Of a stretch of 58,234 nucleotides of DNA, positions 10,889-25,343 are shown piece by piece; the first letter of the stretch is position 1, and every line of letters begins with the position of its first letter. Location of the stretch: NCBI GenBank assembly GCA_023132435.1, contig JAGLYF010000190.1, forward strand, positions 1-58,234, read 5' to 3'. Under the pieces are notes generated by a model. The model had not been told where the DNA came from and ran no database searches. It saw only the letters and a list, made by a program, of their open reading frames with translations. This DNA is from Calditrichia bacterium (GTDB taxonomy: Bacteria > Calditrichota > Calditrichia > JAJRVZ01). Both the position numbers and the translations under genes were made by a program.

Positions 10889-11311
10889 CTACTGAAGATT
10901 TTTTGTAACGATAGTTTCTGTGCCTGTATCTGAAAATTTAAATTCAAGTCCATCCATCAAATTTCGGATTAAAAAAATACCCCGACCACTTTCATTAAGC
11001 AGATTCTCAGGTGCCAGGGGATCTTTTAATTTATCAGGATTAAATCCACTTCCCTGGTCGATTATTCTAAGTTCGATTTTTTCCTGATCAACAGTAAATA
11101 CGATGTGAACAAGTTTATCCGGATCATTGTTGTTTCCGTGATGAATCGCATTATTTACGAGTTCGGTTGTAACAATTCCCAAATCATCACTATCGCTTTC
11201 AGTGAGTTTCGCATACCGGGCAACTTTACTACTCAATTTTTCCACATTCTCCAGATATTTTATATCACTGGAAAATTTCAGTTCAAATTTTCGCGGTTTT
11301 AAAGAGACCAT
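10889..11311 (-). CDS. RsbW/SpoIIAB-like anti-sigma factor serine kinase (GHKL ATPase)
   Basis: 140 aa with N-box ELVNNAIHHG, G1 DQGSGF and G2 ESGRGIFLIRNLMD. Confidence 0.75.
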   Translation of the reverse strand: MVSLKPRKFELKFSSDIKYLENVEKLSSKVARYAKLTESDSDDLGIVTTELVNNAIHHGNNNDPDKLVHIVFTVDQEKIELRIIDQGSGFNPDKLKDPLAPENLLNESGRGIFLIRNLMDGLEFKFSDTGTETIVTKNLQ

Positions 11312-15348: not shown

Positions 15349-15837
15349 ATGTCACTTCATAAAAGTATAATCTTAATATTACTCGCAATTGTTATTTGGG
15401 ACAATGGTTGTGCAAAAAAAGATGGAATGGCAGTTCCGGAAAAGATTAGTGAAAAGAAAATCACCAAATTGCTTGCTGGTGACGAGGCAGTAATGGTAAT
15501 AGATAAATTGCACGGGCTGGAGGTTGCACCGGAAGAAAATATTATTGCCGAATATGGAGAGGACCCAAAAGACCTGCTCTATATCTCTTATTATAAGGAT
15601 GAAGATCAGGCCAGGGATGCATTTAAATTAATGATCAGTAAAATGATGAAAACAGACCAGGGGCCGTTTACTCATATTCGCGCTTTGCCGGACTATGGGG
15701 ATAAGGTATATATGAGTATTGGGATGGGAGCAATTCATTACATTTATTATTCTTCTTATTATATTTTATGGTTGCAAACCTATCAGGATATTGGCCGTGA
15801 ATTACCAGAGGATTTACTTGCGCTCTATCCGATATAA
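15349..15837 (+). CDS. hypothetical lipoprotein
   Basis: Signal peptide with lipobox-like WDNGC. No recognisable family. Confidence 0.45.
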   Translation: MSLHKSIILILLAIVIWDNGCAKKDGMAVPEKISEKKITKLLAGDEAVMVIDKLHGLEVAPEENIIAEYGEDPKDLLYISYYKDEDQARDAFKLMISKMMKTDQGPFTHIRALPDYGDKVYMSIGMGAIHYIYYSSYYILWLQTYQDIGRELPEDLLALYPI

Positions 15838-16178: not shown

Positions 16179-17480
16179 ATGGGACAATCCAATTCAATAC
16201 CAGAACTGGAACAATTAAAAACTGAAAACCACCGACTGAGAATTGCCGTTGAGGAATTATCGGTATTAAATGATATTGCCACTGCTATCAGTTCTACACT
16301 TGAACTCGATCGTGTGGTCGCGATGATCGTTCAAAAATGTGTAAAACATCTGAAAGGGGAACAGGGAGCAATATGGTTACTGGAGGAGCAGGATCAGGAG
16401 AAACCGTGGGTTACTGTCGTACGCACACAAGATTCAGAGGTTACTGGTTTACCCTATCGTCTGGATACCCAGCTAACCGGCTGGATGATTAAAAATCAGA
16501 AACCACTGATCGTTCAGGATCTTGAGACCGATGAACGTTTTCAGATTACAAAAAATGAAGGAAGCTATCTTCGTTCCTTACTCGCTGTACCGCTGCAACA
16601 AAAAGGAAAAATGATTGGTGTATTGTCGGTGTTTAATAAGCGCGGGGAGGAAGGTTTTTTAGATGAAGACAGTCGATTGCTGACCATCATCGGAGCGCAG
16701 TCTGCCCAGGTAATTGAAAGTGCCCGGCTCTATCTGGAAGAGCAGGAACTGTTAAAGATGATGCAGGAAATGAATCTTGCCCGTAAAATCCAGACCAATT
16801 TATTGCCGGCAGAACCACCAAAGTTGGAAGGTTATGAAGCATTTGGTATCAGCATTCCGGCCAAAGATGTTGGGGGCGACTATTATGATTTTATAACCAA
16901 AGATAATGATAAAATGGTTTTTTGTCTTGGAGATGTTTCGGGAAAAGGGATGCCGGCCGCCCTATTGATGGCAAATTTACAGGCGACCCTGCGCGGTCAG
17001 TCGATGGGTTGTAAAAGTGCCCTGGATTGTTTAAAAACGTCAAACCAACTTCTTTATCACAGTACGGATATGGAAAAATACGCCACCATGTTTTATGGCA
17101 TAATATGTTTTAAGGACCATCAACTTATATTCGCCAATGCCGGACACAACAACCCCTTCCTCGTATCTCAGGATGGATCAGTGCGGAGATTGAAAACTGT
17201 CGGCATTCCTCTCGGTTGGTTAGAAGATTTTGACTATACCGAGGAGAAGATACCTTTTAACACTGGTGATATACTGGTAACATTTTCTGATGGGATAAGT
17301 GAGGCAATGAATGAGCAGGAGGAGGAATTTGAGGAGGAACCAATCCTTGATATCATAAAGCAGAACTTATCTGCATCTCCCAAGGAAATTACAGACAACA
17401 TTATTGAAGCGGTGCACAATCATGCCGGCAATGCTCCCCAGGCTGATGATATGACTCTGGTTGTAATTAAAAGAACATGA
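16179..17480 (+). CDS. GAF-domain PP2C (SpoIIE/RsbU-type) serine phosphatase
   Basis: N-terminal coiled coil plus a GAF domain. PP2C block GGDYYDF...GDVSGKGMPAALLMA...DGISEA...DDMTLVV. Confidence 0.85.
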   Translation: MGQSNSIPELEQLKTENHRLRIAVEELSVLNDIATAISSTLELDRVVAMIVQKCVKHLKGEQGAIWLLEEQDQEKPWVTVVRTQDSEVTGLPYRLDTQLTGWMIKNQKPLIVQDLETDERFQITKNEGSYLRSLLAVPLQQKGKMIGVLSVFNKRGEEGFLDEDSRLLTIIGAQSAQVIESARLYLEEQELLKMMQEMNLARKIQTNLLPAEPPKLEGYEAFGISIPAKDVGGDYYDFITKDNDKMVFCLGDVSGKGMPAALLMANLQATLRGQSMGCKSALDCLKTSNQLLYHSTDMEKYATMFYGIICFKDHQLIFANAGHNNPFLVSQDGSVRRLKTVGIPLGWLEDFDYTEEKIPFNTGDILVTFSDGISEAMNEQEEEFEEEPILDIIKQNLSASPKEITDNIIEAVHNHAGNAPQADDMTLVVIKRT

Positions 17481-17619
17481 TGTTAGCACCATATGTACTA
17501 TTTAATTTGTGGAGTAAATTCTTCATTATGGTTATATCGTTGTACAGTGCTTTGCACTAGACATACTATAATAGTAAATCGATTCAGAGCAGGGAAAACA
17601 GAAGCAGAGGAGAATATCA

Positions 17620-17958
17620 GTGGTTTGTATTGAAAAGGAAGTCGATGATTTAATGGTATTAACACTGAAAGGAAAATTGATAGTCCAGGAAGAGACCGAT
17701 AAACTTCACACCTGCATTAAATCAGTACTGGACCGGGATATTAACAAAATAATCCTCAATTTAAAAAACCTGTCACGTATTTCGAGTATCGGGATTGGTG
17801 CAATTATGAGAGCTTTAACGATAGTGCGTGATGCGGGTGGGGATTTGCGTCTGGCCGGACTGGATCCTAATGTTAAAAATATTTTAGAGATAACAAAGAT
17901 TATTGGGGTAATCCGGATTTTTGATCAAAGCGATCAGGCGATTGCCAGTTTTACATAA
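17620..17958 (+). CDS. STAS-domain anti-sigma-factor antagonist (RsbV/SpoIIAA-like), copy 1
   Basis: 112 aa. The conserved phospho-acceptor region is NLSRISSIGIGAIM. GTG start. Confidence 0.8.
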   Translation: MVCIEKEVDDLMVLTLKGKLIVQEETDKLHTCIKSVLDRDINKIILNLKNLSRISSIGIGAIMRALTIVRDAGGDLRLAGLDPNVKNILEITKIIGVIRIFDQSDQAIASFT

Positions 17959-17995
17959 AATAATTAATGGTTAAACTTACGTAAAGGTGAATATT

Positions 17996-18775
17996 ATGTT
18001 CATGCGACTTTTTCACCTGAAGGCAAAATCTGATAAGGTTGGTGTATTAATTTCATTCTATGACGCGATTGTAATTCCCGAGTTACAAAAAATTGATGGC
18101 TGCCTGTTTGCCGGTCTTCTCCAAAGTAATACGGATATAACCGAAGGAATATCTCTTACACTCTGGGATACAAAACAACATGCTGAAAATTATGAAGGAA
18201 GCGGATTATTCGAAAAATTGCTGGACCAGGCCAAATCATCCCTGGCAGAATCAACCGAATGGAAAATCCAGTTATCAGAAGATCTTGAGTTAGAATATAA
18301 ACCTGAAGATGAAGGACCGGAACTGGAACATTATATTGTTACGGTACATGAACGTGTCAAAGAAGACTTGTTCAGACAGCATTCTAAAATGTATGTACGG
18401 ATAGTATCCCATATCTTGCAAAAGGATAAAATTGAAGAGTTTCGTGATATCTTTACAGATGAGATATTACCAGTACTACGAGAGACAAAAGGCTGCCGAT
18501 ATGCATATCTCATTGAAAGTATGCATCAGGAAAATGAAGTGATTTCCTTATCAATCTGGGATAGTCAGGAAGATGCAGTAACTTATGAGAAAAGTGGCGA
18601 GTTTGATAAACTGATAAACAAATTAAGACCGACATTTTCTCAATTCTATCAATGGAAAATGGCATTGGATAAAGATACGGTAAAAAAAGTAAGTACAACC
18701 GATGATTTAAAAGTTACTCATTACAGTGTGGTGACTGGAAAAAATTTACGAAGTTCCTTTCCTGAAAACAGATAA
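17996..18775 (+). CDS. tandem ABM/Dabb-like (ferredoxin-fold) two-domain protein
   Basis: Clear internal duplication, shown by ISLTLWDTKQHAENYEGSGLFEKL versus ISLSIWDSQEDAVTYEKSGEFDKL. The start is ambiguous (17987 GTG, 17996 ATG or 18002 ATG). Confidence 0.5.
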   Translation: MFMRLFHLKAKSDKVGVLISFYDAIVIPELQKIDGCLFAGLLQSNTDITEGISLTLWDTKQHAENYEGSGLFEKLLDQAKSSLAESTEWKIQLSEDLELEYKPEDEGPELEHYIVTVHERVKEDLFRQHSKMYVRIVSHILQKDKIEEFRDIFTDEILPVLRETKGCRYAYLIESMHQENEVISLSIWDSQEDAVTYEKSGEFDKLINKLRPTFSQFYQWKMALDKDTVKKVSTTDDLKVTHYSVVTGKNLRSSFPENR

Positions 18776-18946
18776 TTGGTGTGGTTCAACTAAAAATCTT
18801 ATCATTTTTTACTTGGATTTACTGACATTCGTCCATATACTCCTATAGTATTTTGAAGTAGATTACTGTCGTTCTATTTATTACATATTTACTTTTATTA
18901 TTTTATCAATCTCTAACTCAATCTGACCTCAAGAACATGATAATTC

Positions 18947-18974
18947 GTAGAGAGGTAACATGTTACGTCTCCAC
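18947..18974. repeat. degenerate third copy of the TGTAGAGACG palindrome
   Basis: The sequence gtagagaggtaacatgttacgtctccac aligns to the copies at 28724 and 40432. It carries one compensatory pair change and three disruptive changes. Confidence 0.6.
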
Positions 18975-19054
18975 AGCCTAATCTGAATTGGCAAAGTGAA
19001 TCATATTTTAATATTAAGTCAGGTGGTAGATTTGCAATTTAATGGATTTTAATC

Positions 19055-21610
19055 ATGATCGGTGAGTCTGTTTCGCATTATCAAATTTTGGAGAAATTAG
19101 GTGGCGGGGGTATGGGCGTGGTGTATAAAGCCTACGATACACGCTTAAAAAGACAGGTCGCTCTCAAGTTCTTATCATCTGAATTGTGTCACAATGAGGA
19201 TGCGAAAATCCGTTTTATGAGAGAAGCACAGGCTGCTTCTGCACTGGATCATCCCAATATTTGCAATGTCCACGAAATTGACCAAACAGAAGATGGACAG
19301 CTTTTTATTTGCATGACCCTTTGTGAAGGCGACACCTTAAAGAAGAAAATTCAGGACGGACCTCTACCTCTGGATGAAGTAATTACCATTGCTCTCCAGA
19401 TTGCCCGCGGTCTGGCCAGAGCGCATGAAGTAGGTATATTTCACAGAGATCTCAAACCAGCCAATATCATGCTTACTGAGCAGGGGGAAGTGAAAATTGT
19501 TGATTTTGGTCTTGCCAAGTTGTCCGGTCAACAGGATTTAACAAAAGAAGGCTCTACCATAGGAACGGTGGCCTATATGTCCCCGGAACAAGCGAAGGGT
19601 CAAACATCCGATCACCGAACGGATCTATGGTCTTTTGGGGTTATTCTTTATGAACTCCTCACCGGAGACTGGCCTTTTAGAGGAGATTATGACCAGGCGG
19701 TTATCTATTCCGTTTTGAATGAGGAACCGGAAGCGATTCAAAATTTACGAAAAGATGTGCCAGTTGAACTGATCAATATTATTACGCGGTGTCTGATGAA
19801 AGATCCGAAAGACAGATACTCATCAATGGATGATATTGTCCTGATATTGCAACAACACCAGCAAGGCATCACACCTGCCAGCCGTTTATATCTCCTCGAA
19901 ACAATGGAAGGGGTAATTCAGAAATTAACAAGGTACAGACTCCCGATAATCATCGTTGTTACCCTATTTGTTATATTTGGCATATGGGAGATTTTTTTCT
20001 CTTTCAGTTCACCCAGGTATCTTGTCGTTTTACCATTCAGAGTTATTGGAAAGGAAGCCATTGATGATTTCTACCGTGATGGAATGCTCGAGATAATAAA
20101 CAGTAAACTTACCCAATTAGAGCAGTTTCAGGAAAAACTTTGGGTAATTTCAGGCAGTGAGGTTAGAAATCACAAACTTACCAGTGTTGCAGAAGCACGT
20201 GATATTGTCGGTGCAGATCTGGCAATTACTGGTAGTATAGGACAAACAGATGGTTCTTTTAGATATACGTTAAATCTTGTAGAAACAGAATCATTTATCC
20301 AACTCAAGTCAAAGGACCTGACTGTAGAAAGAAATGCAGCATCTATTGCGGAAGCGAAAATTATAGACAGTATCGTTGAGATGCTCAATCTGGAACTGGG
20401 GCAGGAATCAAGAAGTGTTCTCTATGCAGGGGGAACAAGTCTGCCAGATGCCTATGACTACTATGTTCGGGGCCGAGGCTTTCTGACACACTCCGAAGAA
20501 ATTAATAATATTGAGACAGCAATTTCCTTGTTTGAGTTGGCTCTAGCCGCTGATAGCACCTTTCTTCTTGCCTATACCGGTTTGGGTGAAGCTTATTGGA
20601 GAAAATATGACGCCACAAGAGATCCTCAATATGTAGAATTATCTAAAACATCCTGCCAGAAAGCGATGAGCCTGGAAGATCAACATGCTGAGGTAAATGT
20701 CACTTGTGGCATGATATTCAGTGGAATCGGCGAATATGAGAAAGCAGTTGACATACTTCAAAAAGCGTTATTAATAGATCCGAATAATGCAACAGCCTCC
20801 CTGGAATTAGGCCTGGCTTATTTATTACTGGGAAATCTTGAGCTATCCCGAAAAACATTTGAGACAACTGTTAAAAACCGGCCCGGATACTGGCAGGGGC
20901 ATAGCTACCTGGGTTATTTCTACTATGTAACAGGTGAATACAAAAGGGCAGTGGATCAATATCAAAAAGTAGTCGAGCTGATACCCCATAGTGATGTAGG
21001 ATACAGAAAACTGGCAGCGGTCTATTTTCAGATAGATAAACCAGAAGAGTTTATTGTAGCTTCTGAGAAGGCGATGAAGATAAAACCTTCATATAGTGTA
21101 GTTAATAATCTTGCTGTTTTTTATTACTACTCCGGCGAATACGAGAAGGCAGCAAAAATGTTCAAAGAAGTACTTGCTTATAATATTCATGATTATCTGA
21201 TTTATGGAAATATAGCAACAGCCAGTTATTTTACCGGTCAAAAGGACAGTGCAGAAGTGTATTATAAAAAAGCGGCTGAATTAGCAGAGGATGAGAGACA
21301 GATTAATCCACGGGATGACTTTATTTTGTCTAATTTAGCCGGTTATTATGCCAGACTAGATAGCACTGATAAAGCGTATCGACTGTTAGATGAAGTAAAA
21401 AACCTGGATCCGAAAAACCTTACAGTCATCTTTAATATGGGTGATGTCTATGAGCAACTTGGTGACCGGGAAACCGCACTTTTCTGGATGAAAAAAGCAA
21501 TCGAGAATGGTGCCACATTGGCTAAATTTAAATTAAATCCGGGATTAAAAGAATTGATCGCCGATCAGAGATTTAAGGAAATTCTCAGTCAGGTAGAATC
21601 TTTAGATTAA
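19055..21610 (+). CDS. Hanks-type Ser/Thr protein kinase with TM segment and C-terminal TPR repeats, copy 1
   Basis: GGGGMGVVYKA...HRDLKPANIM...DFGLAK...YMSPEQ, then one TM segment, a VVLPF-type module and multiple TPR repeats. Confidence 0.9.
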   Translation: MIGESVSHYQILEKLGGGGMGVVYKAYDTRLKRQVALKFLSSELCHNEDAKIRFMREAQAASALDHPNICNVHEIDQTEDGQLFICMTLCEGDTLKKKIQDGPLPLDEVITIALQIARGLARAHEVGIFHRDLKPANIMLTEQGEVKIVDFGLAKLSGQQDLTKEGSTIGTVAYMSPEQAKGQTSDHRTDLWSFGVILYELLTGDWPFRGDYDQAVIYSVLNEEPEAIQNLRKDVPVELINIITRCLMKDPKDRYSSMDDIVLILQQHQQGITPASRLYLLETMEGVIQKLTRYRLPIIIVVTLFVIFGIWEIFFSFSSPRYLVVLPFRVIGKEAIDDFYRDGMLEIINSKLTQLEQFQEKLWVISGSEVRNHKLTSVAEARDIVGADLAITGSIGQTDGSFRYTLNLVETESFIQLKSKDLTVERNAASIAEAKIIDSIVEMLNLELGQESRSVLYAGGTSLPDAYDYYVRGRGFLTHSEEINNIETAISLFELALAADSTFLLAYTGLGEAYWRKYDATRDPQYVELSKTSCQKAMSLEDQHAEVNVTCGMIFSGIGEYEKAVDILQKALLIDPNNATASLELGLAYLLLGNLELSRKTFETTVKNRPGYWQGHSYLGYFYYVTGEYKRAVDQYQKVVELIPHSDVGYRKLAAVYFQIDKPEEFIVASEKAMKIKPSYSVVNNLAVFYYYSGEYEKAAKMFKEVLAYNIHDYLIYGNIATASYFTGQKDSAEVYYKKAAELAEDERQINPRDDFILSNLAGYYARLDSTDKAYRLLDEVKNLDPKNLTVIFNMGDVYEQLGDRETALFWMKKAIENGATLAKFKLNPGLKELIADQRFKEILSQVESLD

Positions 21611-21665
21611 AAAATACAAACAAGGATTTGTTTATTTAGATAATATATATATGGAGGTGATCGTT

Positions 21666-22163
21666 ATGAAATTTAGATATGTCGTTTTACTTGTTTTATT
21701 TCTCAATACCACTTTTTGTACCAGGGACAAAAATTCAGACAATGGAGTACCTGACGCTCCACCCGTTGAAGATACCGTCAGTGTCATATTAAAGTATGAC
21801 AAAGAACAACCATTGGAATCCCAATATCGCATTCGTAAAGTTAGCGTAAAACAAAAAGGCAAATTGAGATTTACCAATGATACAAAAGAAAAAGAAACCA
21901 GTGTAACATTTATCATTCCCAATGCAGATCTATTATTCGAGGATTTTAGAGGTTACTACGCTTTCTCAATCAATAATATCACCTATTTGGTGATTACTGT
22001 TGGTAAAAATGGAAAATCAAAAGTATTGAAAATTCATGATGATGCTAATCAGGGAGCGGGCGAGGTCGGCAAAATATATCCTTATTCAGCCTATTGCCAG
22101 GATGCGGGGGTTATGGCAGAGGGGGACTCTTCTCCCGTTATTATTATTAAACCCGGGAGCTGA
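21666..22163 (+). CDS. hypothetical lipoprotein
   Basis: The ATG at 21666 lies 7 nt after GGAGG. Signal peptide with a Cys (LNTTFC). No family recognised. Confidence 0.4.
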   Translation: MKFRYVVLLVLFLNTTFCTRDKNSDNGVPDAPPVEDTVSVILKYDKEQPLESQYRIRKVSVKQKGKLRFTNDTKEKETSVTFIIPNADLLFEDFRGYYAFSINNITYLVITVGKNGKSKVLKIHDDANQGAGEVGKIYPYSAYCQDAGVMAEGDSSPVIIIKPGS

Positions 22164-22241
22164 AAGTGAATAAGAATTAGACCACGGATAAGACACCTGC
22201 CTCGCAACTGGCGGGGATATAACACTCAGTACCGAAAATAA

Positions 22242-22270
22242 TTGACGCTTTTATTAAAAAAAGGTATATT
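22242..22270 (+). promoter_or_regulatory. putative sigma-70-type promoter (TTGACG-17 nt-TATATT) for STAS copy 2
   Basis: TTGACG at 22242-22247, a 17-nt spacer and TATATT at 22265-22270, about 50 nt upstream of the ATG at 22321. Confidence 0.45.
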
Positions 22271-22320
22271 TTGGCAATTAATATTTCTCAACCACTTCGA
22301 AGAAGAGGAGGATCAGCTCA

Positions 22321-22665
22321 ATGAAATTTAAAGATAAAATCGAGGATGGTATCGGCATTCTGACCCTAAAAGGTAAGTTAATGGGATATCCGGAGACTGA
22401 TGAATTACATGATGAGATGAAAAGTTTTATGGGGCAGAAAGTCAATAAAATCATTATCGATCTCAATGGTGTTAGCTGGATGAATAGTATGGGCATTGGT
22501 GCATTGATGCGTTGTCTTACAACCATACGCAATGCCGAGGGTGATCTACGCCTGGCACGGATGAGCGAAAAAGCGCGAAGTGTTTTTGTGATATCGCAGC
22601 TGATCAGTATATACAAGATTTATGAGACTGTTGAAGAAGCAATTGAGAGCTTCAAAAACGAATAG
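22321..22665 (+). CDS. STAS-domain anti-sigma-factor antagonist, copy 2
   Basis: 114 aa and a paralog of 17620-17958 (LTLKGKL...TD.LH...NKII..L...S...S.GIGA.MR.LT..R.A.GDLRLA). The acceptor region is GVSWMNSMGIGALM. Confidence 0.8.
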   Translation: MKFKDKIEDGIGILTLKGKLMGYPETDELHDEMKSFMGQKVNKIIIDLNGVSWMNSMGIGALMRCLTTIRNAEGDLRLARMSEKARSVFVISQLISIYKIYETVEEAIESFKNE

Positions 22666-22691
22666 TCTTCGATCTTATTTCGATATTTTTT

Positions 22692-22725
22692 AATCCCCAG
22701 CTATTGATAACCTGGGGATTTTTTA
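22692..22725 (+). terminator. intrinsic terminator after STAS copy 2
   Basis: Stem aatccccag / ctggggatt (22692-22700 / 22712-22720) running into TTTTTTATTT. Confidence 0.65.
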
Positions 22726-22823
22726 TTTGTGTGAATTAGAAAATTTGTTTGCCATTACAATCTGAGATAAGTAGCTTCAGATTAAAGTATCTAATATCCT
22801 TCACTTAATATTAAACCAATTTC

Positions 22824-25343
22824 ATGTCAGTAACCGGTTCAACTATTTCTCATTACAGAATCCTCGACAAACTTGGCGAGGGTGGAATGGGAATGGTCTA
22901 CAAGGCGGAAGATCTTAAATTAAAAAGAATAGTGGCCATTAAAATTCTGCCCCCATCTCTCACCAGGGATCATGAAACGCGGATGCGGTTCAGTCAGGAA
23001 GCACAGTCTGCTTCGGCGCTGGATCATCCCAATATTTGTACCATCTATGAAATTGATCAGACCGAAGATGCTCAGATCTTCATGGTCATGGCTTACTACG
23101 ATGGTCAAACGCTTGACAAGAAAATAAAAAGCGACCAGATCCCTTTTAAAGAATCTCTCGATATTTCGATTAAAATTGCCGAAGGCCTGGCAAAGGCACA
23201 TAAGCATGGTATTGTTCACCGGGATATTAAACCGGCCAATATCATGGTAACTGAGGATGGCGAGGTAAAAATTCTCGATTTTGGTCTGGCAAAATTAGCT
23301 GGTCAGGCCAACCTGACAAAAGAACATACGTCGCTGGGTACTGTTAATTACATGTCACCTGAACAGGCCCAGGGTGATTTGGCGGATGATCGAACGGATA
23401 TCTGGTCCCTGGGGGTTTTACTGTATGAGTCGATTACCGGTCAGTTTCCTTTTAGGGGTGAATATGAACAAGCTGTTATCTATAGTATCATCAATCAGGA
23501 ACCTGAACCATTAAACAAATTCAGAAAAGGTGTGTCTGCCGGCATCGAACAAATCATCCGGAAAGCATTGGCAAAAAATCCTGCCGATCGCTATCAAACT
23601 GTTCTGGATATGCTTGAAGATCTGCAAAAGGTGCGGAAAAGTGTGGAAGAGGGTACGGAAATAAAAATTCCGGGCATGAAAAGGAGTATATCTGCAAGCA
23701 GTAAGAAAATATTCGCTGGTATCGTTGGAATGGTTGTTTTGATATTCCTCCTGTATAAATTTTGGTTTGGTATAACAGACTCTGTTGAGCAGAAGTCGAT
23801 CACGGTCCTTCCTTTTGAGAATTTAAATCAGGACAATCAGAATGCCTATATTAGTGACGGGATTACAGAAGATATTACAGTTCAGCTATCAAAAATATCC
23901 GGTCTTCGGGTTATTGCCTATCGGTCAAGCAAATCATATCGCAATTCTGATAAAGATCTGTCACAGATTGGTGAGGAGTTGCAGGTGGATAATATCCTGA
24001 TTGGAAAAATTCGACAGGAAGATGATCTGATCCGAATAACTGCTCAGTTGATAGATGCCGATGTCGGTGAACAGTTGTGGGCGGAAACCTATGATCGAAA
24101 TTTGGATGCAATATTTAGTATTCAGAGTGAAGTTGCTAAGAAAATCGCTTCCGCCTTACAGGTTGTCCTCTCCAGAGCGGAAACAGAACAAATTGATAAA
24201 AAATATACTGAAAATCTTTCAGCTTATGATTATTACCTGAGGGGAAGAGATTATTATAATCGCTTGCGTTCGGAGGATAATCAAGAAGCGATCAGATTAT
24301 TTAAAAAAGCATATGAAGAGGATTCGGATTTTGCTCTCGCCTATGCCGGACTTGCAGATGCTTATGTCCAAAAAACATTACGGTTTGGCGCTGACTCCCA
24401 CTGGTTAGACTCAGCGATTGTACATTGTGATCGGGCATTAATTATCGATCCATATTTAGCCGAGGCCCATAAGGCATTGGGATTGATTTATTATGCACGC
24501 AGCTGGTTTGACAAATCCTTAAAAGCAAACCTCACAGCGATCGAACTTAATCCCAATTTTTTTATGGCCTTGCATAATCTGGGCTGGATTTATCTGAATC
24601 AGGGTGATTTAGAAAAGTCCGACAAATGGATGAATAGGGCCCGTCGTGTAGATCCAACATTTGCAACCAGTTATATCGGATCCGGGTTGATAAATTTGAT
24701 AGTCGGAGACTATCAGAGAGCAGGGCATCTTTTTCGATTTGCTTGTGAAATACAACCGGATCATAGACTTAACCCGATGATCCCCATATTCTTAATTAAA
24801 TTGTTGATGGGTGATCCTGAGGAAGCAAAAAGTGAAGCAGATAAAATTATCGGTAAAATCTCAGATGATGATGGATTGTATATCGCTGCTGGTGATGTTG
24901 CCCTGTTCTCAGGAGATCCTGCCGCTGCCGGCGAATATTATCAAAAAGCAGTTACAATTAATCCCAAAGCATGGCATCCAATTACGGGAGTGAATGCGAC
25001 TACCAGTCTGGGTTTTATTTTGTGGAAAACCAATCACCGGGTAGAAGCAGATGAGATGCTTCAATACAGTAAGAAGTTAGATGAAGAGACTCTGGAACAG
25101 GGCAGTCAATGGTGGGGTGTATCATACGATATGGCGGCTATCCAGGCGATTCGTAATAATAAGACCGAATGCTATCATTGGCTGGAAAAGGCGATAAATG
25201 ACGGATTCAGGTTTCATACATGGCTTTCCATCGATCCTCTTTTCGAAAATATGCGTGATGATCAACGGTTTAACGAGATCATTGATCAATTAGAAAAATC
25301 GGTCACGGAAATGCGATATAAAATTGAAAAAAAATCCGACTAG
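22824..25343 (+). CDS. Hanks-type Ser/Thr protein kinase with TM segment, VLPF module and TPR repeats, copy 2
   Basis: GEGGMGMVYKA...HRDIKPANIM...DFGLAK...YMSPEQ, then a TM segment, ITVLPFENLNQD...DGITEDI and TPR repeats. Confidence 0.9.
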   Translation: MSVTGSTISHYRILDKLGEGGMGMVYKAEDLKLKRIVAIKILPPSLTRDHETRMRFSQEAQSASALDHPNICTIYEIDQTEDAQIFMVMAYYDGQTLDKKIKSDQIPFKESLDISIKIAEGLAKAHKHGIVHRDIKPANIMVTEDGEVKILDFGLAKLAGQANLTKEHTSLGTVNYMSPEQAQGDLADDRTDIWSLGVLLYESITGQFPFRGEYEQAVIYSIINQEPEPLNKFRKGVSAGIEQIIRKALAKNPADRYQTVLDMLEDLQKVRKSVEEGTEIKIPGMKRSISASSKKIFAGIVGMVVLIFLLYKFWFGITDSVEQKSITVLPFENLNQDNQNAYISDGITEDITVQLSKISGLRVIAYRSSKSYRNSDKDLSQIGEELQVDNILIGKIRQEDDLIRITAQLIDADVGEQLWAETYDRNLDAIFSIQSEVAKKIASALQVVLSRAETEQIDKKYTENLSAYDYYLRGRDYYNRLRSEDNQEAIRLFKKAYEEDSDFALAYAGLADAYVQKTLRFGADSHWLDSAIVHCDRALIIDPYLAEAHKALGLIYYARSWFDKSLKANLTAIELNPNFFMALHNLGWIYLNQGDLEKSDKWMNRARRVDPTFATSYIGSGLINLIVGDYQRAGHLFRFACEIQPDHRLNPMIPIFLIKLLMGDPEEAKSEADKIIGKISDDDGLYIAAGDVALFSGDPAAAGEYYQKAVTINPKAWHPITGVNATTSLGFILWKTNHRVEADEMLQYSKKLDEETLEQGSQWWGVSYDMAAIQAIRNNKTECYHWLEKAINDGFRFHTWLSIDPLFENMRDDQRFNEIIDQLEKSVTEMRYKIEKKSD

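Follow-up and report, generated by a model that had tools for sequence, protein, structure and literature searches.

A phosphatase and tandem-ABM signalling cassette of the Calditrichota that groups Hanks-type kinases with STAS proteins

We analysed the 58,234-nucleotide contig JAGLYF010000190.1 of a Calditrichia bacterium (assembly GCA_023132435.1), which we refer to in its entirety as the window, and within it a run of genes at positions 16179..25343 that we call the cassette. A preliminary description, made from the letters alone, had read this run as a partner-switching-like locus in which STAS proteins are accompanied by Hanks-type kinases. The gene order and domains that it gave hold: the coordinates match the open reading frames (ORFs), the ORF list places the cassette wholly on the plus strand, and Pfam confirms each domain. 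The features are as follows.

10889..11311, minus strand: orphan RsbW-type GHKL serine kinase or anti-sigma-like protein (Pfam HATPase_c_2, E 1.5e-27)
15349..15837, plus strand: small putative lipoprotein of 162 amino acids (aa), between LipA and the phosphatase, with an N-terminus ending ...DNGC
16179..17480, plus strand: GAF and SpoIIE-type PP2C (PPM) phosphatase (Pfam SpoIIE E 1.2e-47; GAF E 1e-14 to 1.5e-16)
17620..17958, plus strand: STAS1, a single-domain anti-sigma-antagonist-type protein (Pfam STAS E 1.5e-14)
17987..18775, plus strand: tandem-ABM protein (Pfam ABM, PF03992, in two stretches)
19055..21610, plus strand: STK1, a receptor Hanks-type Ser/Thr kinase (Pfam Pkinase, PF00069, E 7e-56, and TPR families)
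21651..22163, plus strand: small putative lipoprotein of 170 aa, with a lipoprotein-like N-terminus as read from the sequence
22242..22270, plus strand: sigma-70-like promoter match, TTGACG-17-TATATT, upstream of STAS2
22321..22665, plus strand: STAS2, a single-domain STAS protein (Pfam STAS E 1.2e-14)
22692..22729, plus strand: intrinsic-terminator-like hairpin and U-run between STAS2 and STK2
22824..25343, plus strand: STK2, a second receptor Hanks-type kinase (Pfam Pkinase E 8e-54 and TPR families)

As had been stated, the cassette lacks a GHKL kinase: 16179-25343 contains no HATPase_c_2 gene, and the nearest is 5 kb off on the opposite strand. Nor is a sigma factor gene nearby, since Sigma70_r2 has no match on the 58-kb contig and the genome's 18 matches are all elsewhere. 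DNA runs containing the window stretch are labelled as cold-seep and marine-sediment metagenomes. One metagenomic locus, L117, repeats the full gene order of the window at 92-96% amino-acid identity, which shows that the arrangement did not arise from faulty assembly.

The region holds a signalling cassette that is conserved in the Calditrichota and consists of the GAF-PP2C phosphatase and the tandem-ABM protein, with Hanks kinases in most genomes and, here, two STAS proteins. The ABM gene is present in 22 of the 86 genomes of the phylum. By family, it was found in 7/9 genomes of f1, 2/2 of f7, 10/17 of f2, 1/10 of f3, 1/4 of f4, 0/26 of f5, 0/16 of f6 and 0/1 of f8. In the 21 ABM-bearing genomes other than that of the window, the phosphatase gene is directly upstream of ABM, or separated from it by one STAS gene, in 15 of the 20 that could be assessed, and a Hanks kinase gene lies within about 3 kb downstream in 16 of 21; three of the remainder reach a contig edge and two have no kinase. 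The phosphatase orthologues found directly upstream of ABM in relatives are 50-76% identical to that of the window, and the gaps between PP2C and ABM, and between ABM and STAS in f2, measure 29-76 bp.

The genomes differ in what is added to this pair. Within the window's own family, f1, the order is PP2C, STAS1, ABM, STAS2, STK2 in G007; STAS1, ABM, a remnant of STK1, STAS2, STK2 in G004, where the window query found no phosphatase; PP2C, ABM, STAS2, STK2 in G006, G003 and G008; and ABM, STAS2, STK2 on a short contig of G009. In family f7, PP2C and ABM precede two STK1-like kinases and STAS2, after which comes either another kinase or a second PP2C. Within f2, the order is PP2C, ABM, STAS, STK1-like kinase in G081 and PP2C, ABM, kinase, without STAS, in G076, G075 and G018. 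G036, also of f2, has PP2C, ABM, STAS and a kinase that carries an FGE-sulfatase sensor instead of TPR, and there the flanking genes are entirely different. The cassette position is filled by kinases of at least four orthologue groups (STK1-like, STK2-like, C272-like and C16-like).

A scan of metagenomes with an ABM alignment returned 80 loci, 71 of them distinct after removal of nine near-identical duplicates. Of 39 assessable loci, 22 have PP2C immediately before ABM and four more have it immediately after, and a kinase domain starts within 1.7 kb downstream of ABM in 16 of 32. Where at least 4.5 kb was available on both sides, a Hanks kinase was found within 4.5 kb in 14 of 17 loci; the remaining three (L120, L123 and L138) carry an RsbW-type kinase and STAS. 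We conclude that the GAF-PP2C phosphatase and the tandem-ABM protein, encoded as an operon core, are the conserved core of the cassette, usually with at least one Hanks kinase; that the STAS proteins are lineage-specific additions to it; and that the cassette moves as a unit.

In the phosphatase, the PF07228 match spans profile positions 2-191 of 192, and the metal-binding motifs DVGGD, GDVSGKG, DG and DDMT are readable in the sequence. The ABM protein is an internal duplication of two ferredoxin-like ABM repeats, with a Gly-Cys pair at the equivalent position of both in an alignment of 19 rows: Gly169-Cys170 of the second repeat is invariant in all 19 orthologues, while the first repeat has a nearly invariant Gly and retains the Cys in most rows. 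A redox or ligand role for these pairs is possible. The AlphaFold model of the protein has a mean pLDDT of only 70, and its best PDB matches are 3mcs and 3f44 (TM 0.60-0.70, E about 3e-12), which are tandem ABM 'putative monooxygenases' from structural genomics. The NCBIfam models for HmuQ and for a heme-binding protein gave sub-threshold matches only (E 2e-4 to 5e-4, far below their cut-offs), and a PDB sequence search with the protein found nothing below E 0.7. Its constant pairing with the GAF-PP2C phosphatase suggests a role in phosphatase input, or as a target.

STAS1, whose gene ends 29 bp upstream of that for ABM, and STAS2 both exceed the cut-offs of PF01740 and TIGR00377. They are paralogues, as the preliminary description held (44% identical, E 3e-32), and both keep the position of the phospho-serine: their Ser56, invariant across 21 aligned relatives, aligns with the first Ser of FMDSSGLG in SpoIIAA. 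The position aligned to Ser56 reads Ala in an otherwise identical chain of 1tid. The N-termini read MVCIEKE in STAS1 and MKFKDK in STAS2, and neither has an extension before the STAS fold. Orthologues of STAS1 were found, among the genomes, only in G007 (74%) and G004 (69%), and also in metagenomic relatives; those of STAS2, at 47-85% identity, occur in six genomes of the window's family and two of family f7.

In a STAS tree of 38 rows, the STAS proteins encoded beside an RsbW are split from an orphan clade with support 95/99. The orphan clade holds STAS1, STAS2 and five other orphan STAS proteins, encoded on contigs C84, C8, C172, C105 and C325. The relationships among STAS1, STAS2 and the C84 type are left unresolved by the tree, and the duplications therefore cannot be dated from it. 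Relatives of the orphan clade occur in 41 of 41 sampled genomes; a scan of the genome collection with a seven-row STAS alignment gave seven loci, all in genomes already sampled. The most widely conserved orphan STAS is that of C84 (L102:5873-10391), whose gene is followed by those for endonuclease V, a GAF-GAF histidine kinase, a histone-deacetylase-family protein (HDAC) and PCMT, and the order STAS, histidine kinase, HDAC, PCMT is retained in families f5 and f3. C105 also encodes, at a distance of 6 kb from the gene for an orphan-clade STAS, a protein (L104:6337-8430) that joins an adenylate/guanylate cyclase domain to an STK-like C-terminal TPR sensor region, which is 22-29% identical to the C-termini of the two kinases of the cassette.

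Those two kinases each have one hydrophobic segment, at residues 296-314, with TPR arrays and a TPR end-of-group domain C-terminal to it. STK1 and STK2 would thus each span the membrane once and carry an extracytoplasmic TPR region, a topology drawn from this segment rather than from a dedicated predictor. The catalytic Lys K40, the HRD residues H132-R133-D134, the DFG residues D152-F153-G154 and the SPE residues S178-P179-E180 do not vary across 13 aligned kinase domains. The preliminary description had called the kinases clear paralogues on the strength of shared motifs, and had proposed a segmental duplication of a STAS and kinase cassette. That they are paralogous stands (33% identical over their full length, E 2e-144, and 55-56% in the kinase domain). 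The quoted motifs, however, are family-wide among the approximately 25 Hanks kinases of the genome and mark no special tie between STK1 and STK2. In kinase-domain rankings, STK2 is only 11th among the paralogue matches of STK1, and STK1 is 11th among those of STK2, other paralogues reaching 62%. The nearest paralogue of STK2 is encoded on contig C94, with no STAS nearby, and is 44.6% identical over its full length (691 bits, versus 421 bits with STK1). In other genomes each kinase has orthologues of its own, set apart by large differences in bit score. These rankings and orthologue assignments, made within the approximately 25 paralogues, rule out STK1 and STK2 as a duplicated pair, and the best paralogue of STAS2 is on C84; the segmental duplication is accordingly rejected.

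STK1 is the ancestral cassette kinase: its best-hit orthologues lie downstream of the cassette in G081 and G018 (f2), G031 and G025 (f7) and G065 (f4). In the G004 lineage it was lost: a frameshifted kinase-domain remnant of about 190 bp (L032:10396-10586; residues ~104-171, 71-74% identical) remains there between ABM and STAS2. In DNA run X19, two contigs join the kinase domain of STK1 to that of STK2 (window 19522-23393), omitting about 3.8 kb. As the shorter side of the junction measures only 21-23 letters, this is probably cross-assembly of paralogues and not a real deletion variant. Neither small lipoprotein ORF matched a Pfam or NCBIfam family. That at 15349..15837 has an orthologue in the same position in G006; that at 21651..22163, for which tblastn gave no match in the loci of relatives, is seen in this lineage only, with its place held in L117, judged by the spacing of flanking genes alone.

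The adjacency of STAS and kinase genes is conserved in relatives. In six of the nine other genomes of the same family (G003, G004, G006, G007, G008 and G009), an STK2 orthologue comes after a STAS2 orthologue; in G081 and G036 (f2), G031 (f7) and G011 (f3), the kinase that comes after STAS is another paralogue. Because the adjacency is kept in several families with different kinase paralogues, its loss in related genomes, which the preliminary description had named as an outcome that would speak against a functional pairing, is not what we find. When the best locus per genome was taken with STAS2 as query, a kinase domain lay within 1.5 kb downstream in 8 of 29 other genomes and upstream in one more.

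How might these components work together? By comparative genomics, the grouping suggests that Hanks kinases may feed a switch that is normally run by a different kinase. We infer that the kinases and the phosphatase share substrates, STAS1 and STAS2 among them, and that unphosphorylated STAS binds the orphan RsbW or another partner. STK1 and STK2 would sense the envelope through their periplasmic TPR regions, while the GAF-PP2C phosphatase would sense a cytoplasmic ligand, possibly helped by the ABM protein. Kinases and phosphatase would then form an antagonistic pair that sets the phosphorylation of Ser56 in STAS1 and STAS2, and the unphosphorylated STAS protein would bind a partner, the best candidate being the RsbW-type protein encoded 5 kb upstream, which is found throughout the phylum. 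That the Hanks kinases phosphorylate STAS1 and STAS2 directly is the step we propose most tentatively, as a possibility that falls somewhat short of probable. A prediction of the complex of the STK2 kinase domain with STAS2, made for this one pair and without controls, scored 0.00 in both runs and speaks neither way on binding.

Several observations weigh against such direct phosphorylation. To our knowledge, no Hanks kinase uses the canonical STAS serine. The orphan STAS proteins of C84, C8, C172, C105 and C325 have neither an RsbW nor a Hanks kinase encoded beside them. A search for longer or fused relatives of STAS2 gave one match, a 227-aa protein with STAS domains only, and hence no STAS-kinase fusion, which is weak evidence. 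Of the 37 metagenomic loci that could be assessed, only 10 have an orphan-type STAS gene adjoining ABM, as detected with three orphan-clade queries at E <= 1e-8, which miss divergent STAS such as that of L138. Since most loci lack STAS, the link of the kinase may be to the phosphatase or to ABM and not to STAS. Locus L120 (4677-10857), a close relative whose ABM protein is 79% identical to that of the window, reads LipA, a small ORF, PP2C, STAS, STAS1, ABM, STAS2, DPP4, M29: three STAS genes are present and Hanks kinases are absent, DPP4 standing directly after STAS2. L123 resembles it in having STAS genes without a Hanks kinase.

The transcription signals point the same way. Between STAS2 and STK2 lies a hairpin with a 9-bp stem (-12.6 kcal/mol, z -2.69), which the built-in terminator scan missed because the loop is 11 nucleotides (nt) long. 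G007 and G004 have hairpins at the same place with compensatory changes in the stem, G006 and G009 have other hairpins after STAS2, and none was found after STAS2 in G008 and G003, where the gaps are below 60 bp. A terminator-like hairpin thus follows STAS2 in five of the seven genomes of the family that were examined, and STAS-to-kinase gaps range from 51 to about 470 bp. In most of the family, STAS2 and STK2 therefore probably do not form a simple operon, read-through being possible. The promoter-like match before STAS2 agrees at 10 of 12 positions and is weak, the whole scan having found 32 matches versus 32.0 expected in shuffles. Metatranscriptome run X20 gave contigs of 80-321 nt on the phosphatase, STK1, the 3' end of the lipoprotein gene and STK2, for which DNA carry-over is possible; none of these short contigs bridges two genes. 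Two other RNA runs gave no contigs on the window.

Taken to its end, this line of evidence would leave STAS and kinase without any functional link: Hanks genes, abundant and arranged in tandem arrays, would lie alongside the cassette and be kept there by synteny. The 3.7-Mb genome does have about 25 kinase genes, with tandem pairs on C160, C16, C156, C145 and C218, and many related loci have two to four kinases in a row. STAS2 seems to own a promoter-like site and a terminator-like hairpin, and some close relatives (L120 and L123) are kinase-free. However, the association recurs where the flanks, the kinase orthologue group and the sensor domain differ, and 14 of the 17 well-flanked metagenomic loci show it. 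In every tallied locus that has kinases, these share the strand of the cassette, and at less than 1% of genes their repeated adjacency is not expected by chance, in a count uncorrected for kinship. We consider it quite improbable that STAS and the kinases are functionally unconnected.

A stronger challenge to direct phosphorylation comes from the orphan RsbW. A single-copy orthologue of this protein is present in 77 of the 86 genomes of the phylum (50 of 53 of high quality). Its gene lies in a block (NTP-transferase, mnmA, RsbW, then in divergent orientation VanZ, EEP, FabH, LipA) that was found in six of ten sampled genomes (L092, L094, L095, L098, L100 and L101), with families f5, f3, f7 and f8 represented, and was not seen in the other four (L093, L096, L097 and L099). 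The 5-kb proximity in the window arises because in family f1 the cassette sits right after LipA; in f2 and f7 the cassette is on another contig than RsbW or more than 1 Mb away (the latter in G036). Linkage does not, then, tie RsbW to the cassette, the two being unlinked outside f1, and it is by its phylum-wide presence that the orphan RsbW would be a serious candidate kinase for the STAS proteins. In family f6 (L097:4964-7799 of G020, and L093 of G032), the gene for the orphan RsbW orthologue precedes, by about 1.5 kb, that for a sigma factor of 282 aa that has regions 1.2, 2, 3 and 4, and a PGA_cap gene separates the two. The arrangement is a possible hint that this sigma factor is an RsbW target.

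The signalling inventory of the genome bears on this question. The assembly (3.7 Mb in 360 contigs, 92% complete) has 12 STAS matches, 12 SpoIIE-type phosphatases, eight HATPase_c_2 matches, four of them strong RsbW-type, and about 25 Hanks kinases (26 matches, 25 above the cut-off, a few being contig-end fragments). PF13672 (PP2C_2), PF00481 (PP2C) and FHA (PF00498) have no match in this 92%-complete genome, so no PPM phosphatases were found beyond the 12 SpoIIE-type enzymes. Complete canonical PP2C/STAS/RsbW modules lie at three other places in the genome:

C354: PP2C, STAS, RsbW, PP2C
C318: PP2C, RsbW, STAS, near an extracytoplasmic function (ECF) sigma factor
C175 (L110:3827-8135): a 1185-aa fusion of RsbW-type HATPase_c_2, HAMP and SpoIIE PP2C, then STAS

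The C175 STAS protein has 240 aa and a long acidic tail. Outside these modules, the genome holds seven orphan-clade STAS proteins and one orphan RsbW.

These numbers raise the possibility that the orphan RsbW acts as a hub, phosphorylating and binding all orphan-clade STAS proteins, STAS1 and STAS2 included, with the GAF-PP2C phosphatase removing the phosphate. A near-universal RsbW with no STAS encoded beside it, together with orphan STAS proteins in every genome sampled, is exactly what such a hub predicts, and because the five other orphan-clade STAS proteins of this genome have no Hanks kinase neighbour and a single-copy RsbW is kept in 77 of 86 genomes, parsimony has RsbW serving the whole clade. 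The Hanks-free loci L120 and L123 retain STAS and lie beside this RsbW; the commonest cassette layout is PP2C, ABM, kinase, without STAS; and the experimentally defined kinases of the canonical STAS serine that we know of are all of GHKL type, a type whose genes may lie at unlinked loci (bioRxiv 10.64898/2026.04.08.717354). The Hanks kinases may then be tied to the cassette otherwise: the phosphatase may reset kinase autophosphorylation, there being no PstP-type phosphatase to serve the approximately 25 kinases, or kinase and phosphatase may act on ABM or on the phosphatase itself. Against a hub stands the fact that RsbW is near the cassette in f1 only. The ABM-bearing genomes G064, G065, G082 and G085 have no RsbW orthologue at E <= 1e-20, a weak point given their completeness of 81-89%. 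Moreover, STAS was inserted at two cassette positions in different lineages, always where the sole local kinase is Hanks-type. We regard the hub as a credible possibility that stops short of likely. Direct phosphorylation of STAS by the adjacent kinases and the RsbW hub come out near-equal, and they are not mutually exclusive.

One metagenomic locus places the core in another setting. At L138:5843-11186, an ECF sigma factor gene is divergent from a run of tandem-ABM, GAF-PP2C, RsbW-type kinase, short STAS, a second ECF sigma factor and a 268-aa ORF. The same ABM and phosphatase pair is thus found inside a complete canonical partner-switching operon with sigma factors. This fits in-place displacement of one kinase type by another. 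On such a view, GAF-PP2C and ABM would form a portable input unit for either kinase type; Hanks kinases would have displaced RsbW and would phosphorylate the canonical STAS serine or, where STAS is lacking, ABM, as a phospho-switch or effector in the position of RsbW and STAS. We think this rather unlikely. If true, the cassette would be a hybrid of eukaryote-like kinase signalling and partner switching.

We compared the cassette with known systems. Like the RsbU/RsbV/RsbW and SpoIIE/SpoIIAA/SpoIIAB modules of Bacillus, it encodes a SpoIIE-type PPM phosphatase with an N-terminal sensor domain and single-domain STAS proteins whose serine aligns with the phospho-site of SpoIIAA. Unlike them, it has no GHKL kinase/anti-sigma gene, has no sigma factor gene on the 58-kb contig, and is flanked by Hanks receptor kinases. 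The tandem-ABM gene occupies the position that RsbW has in the genome's own C318 module (PP2C, RsbW, STAS). In the PknB-PstP and PrkC-PrpC pairs, a receptor Ser/Thr kinase is encoded beside a PPM-family phosphatase presumed to oppose it. The cassette likewise has a receptor kinase gene near a PPM-family phosphatase gene, but its phosphatase belongs to the SpoIIE/RsbU subfamily and carries GAF, rather than being of PP2C_2/PP2C type, and STAS and ABM lie between the two enzymes.

The genes for PknD and Rv0516c of Mycobacterium tuberculosis are not known to be linked. Conserved linkage with genes for a SpoIIE-type phosphatase and an ABM protein is specific to the cassette. PknD phosphorylates the STAS protein Rv0516c at Thr2 of an N-terminal extension (PMC1847690). 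The likeness is that a STAS-family regulator is the target of a transmembrane Hanks receptor kinase, which thereby feeds a sigma-regulatory network; the difference, a further point against phosphorylation of Ser56 by STK1 and STK2, is that the Thr2 extension site, which is not the canonical serine, is missing in STAS1 and STAS2. In Anabaena, a preprint describes the phosphatase HenR, the STAS protein All4160 and the candidate serine kinases Alr3423 and All2284, which were picked genome-wide and which we read as RsbW-type (bioRxiv 10.64898/2026.04.08.717354). As described there, that system resembles the cassette in being partner-switching-like, without a sigma factor, and with the STAS kinase not encoded beside the STAS and phosphatase genes; it differs in that the STAS domain of All4160 is fused to a sugar transferase and in having no Hanks kinase or ABM protein. 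The terms PknD, Hanks and eukaryote-like are all missing from a STAS review (PMC8256260), and in the open-access literature we found no description of a conserved STAS/SpoIIE-PP2C/Hanks-kinase or ABM linkage.

Bacterial signalling by partner switching and by Hanks-type kinases is generally regarded as two separate systems, the one well-known crossover being PknD, which uses a non-canonical site. If the two are wired together here, the cassette would be a genetically defined case of both systems linked, conserved across a phylum. Such a cassette would also indicate a kinase for some of the many orphan STAS proteins of environmental bacteria and would assign a signalling role to the uncharacterised tandem-ABM protein family. 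The cassette also bears on how phosphorylation is reset in a genome that encodes about 25 Hanks kinases and lacks a PstP-type phosphatase.

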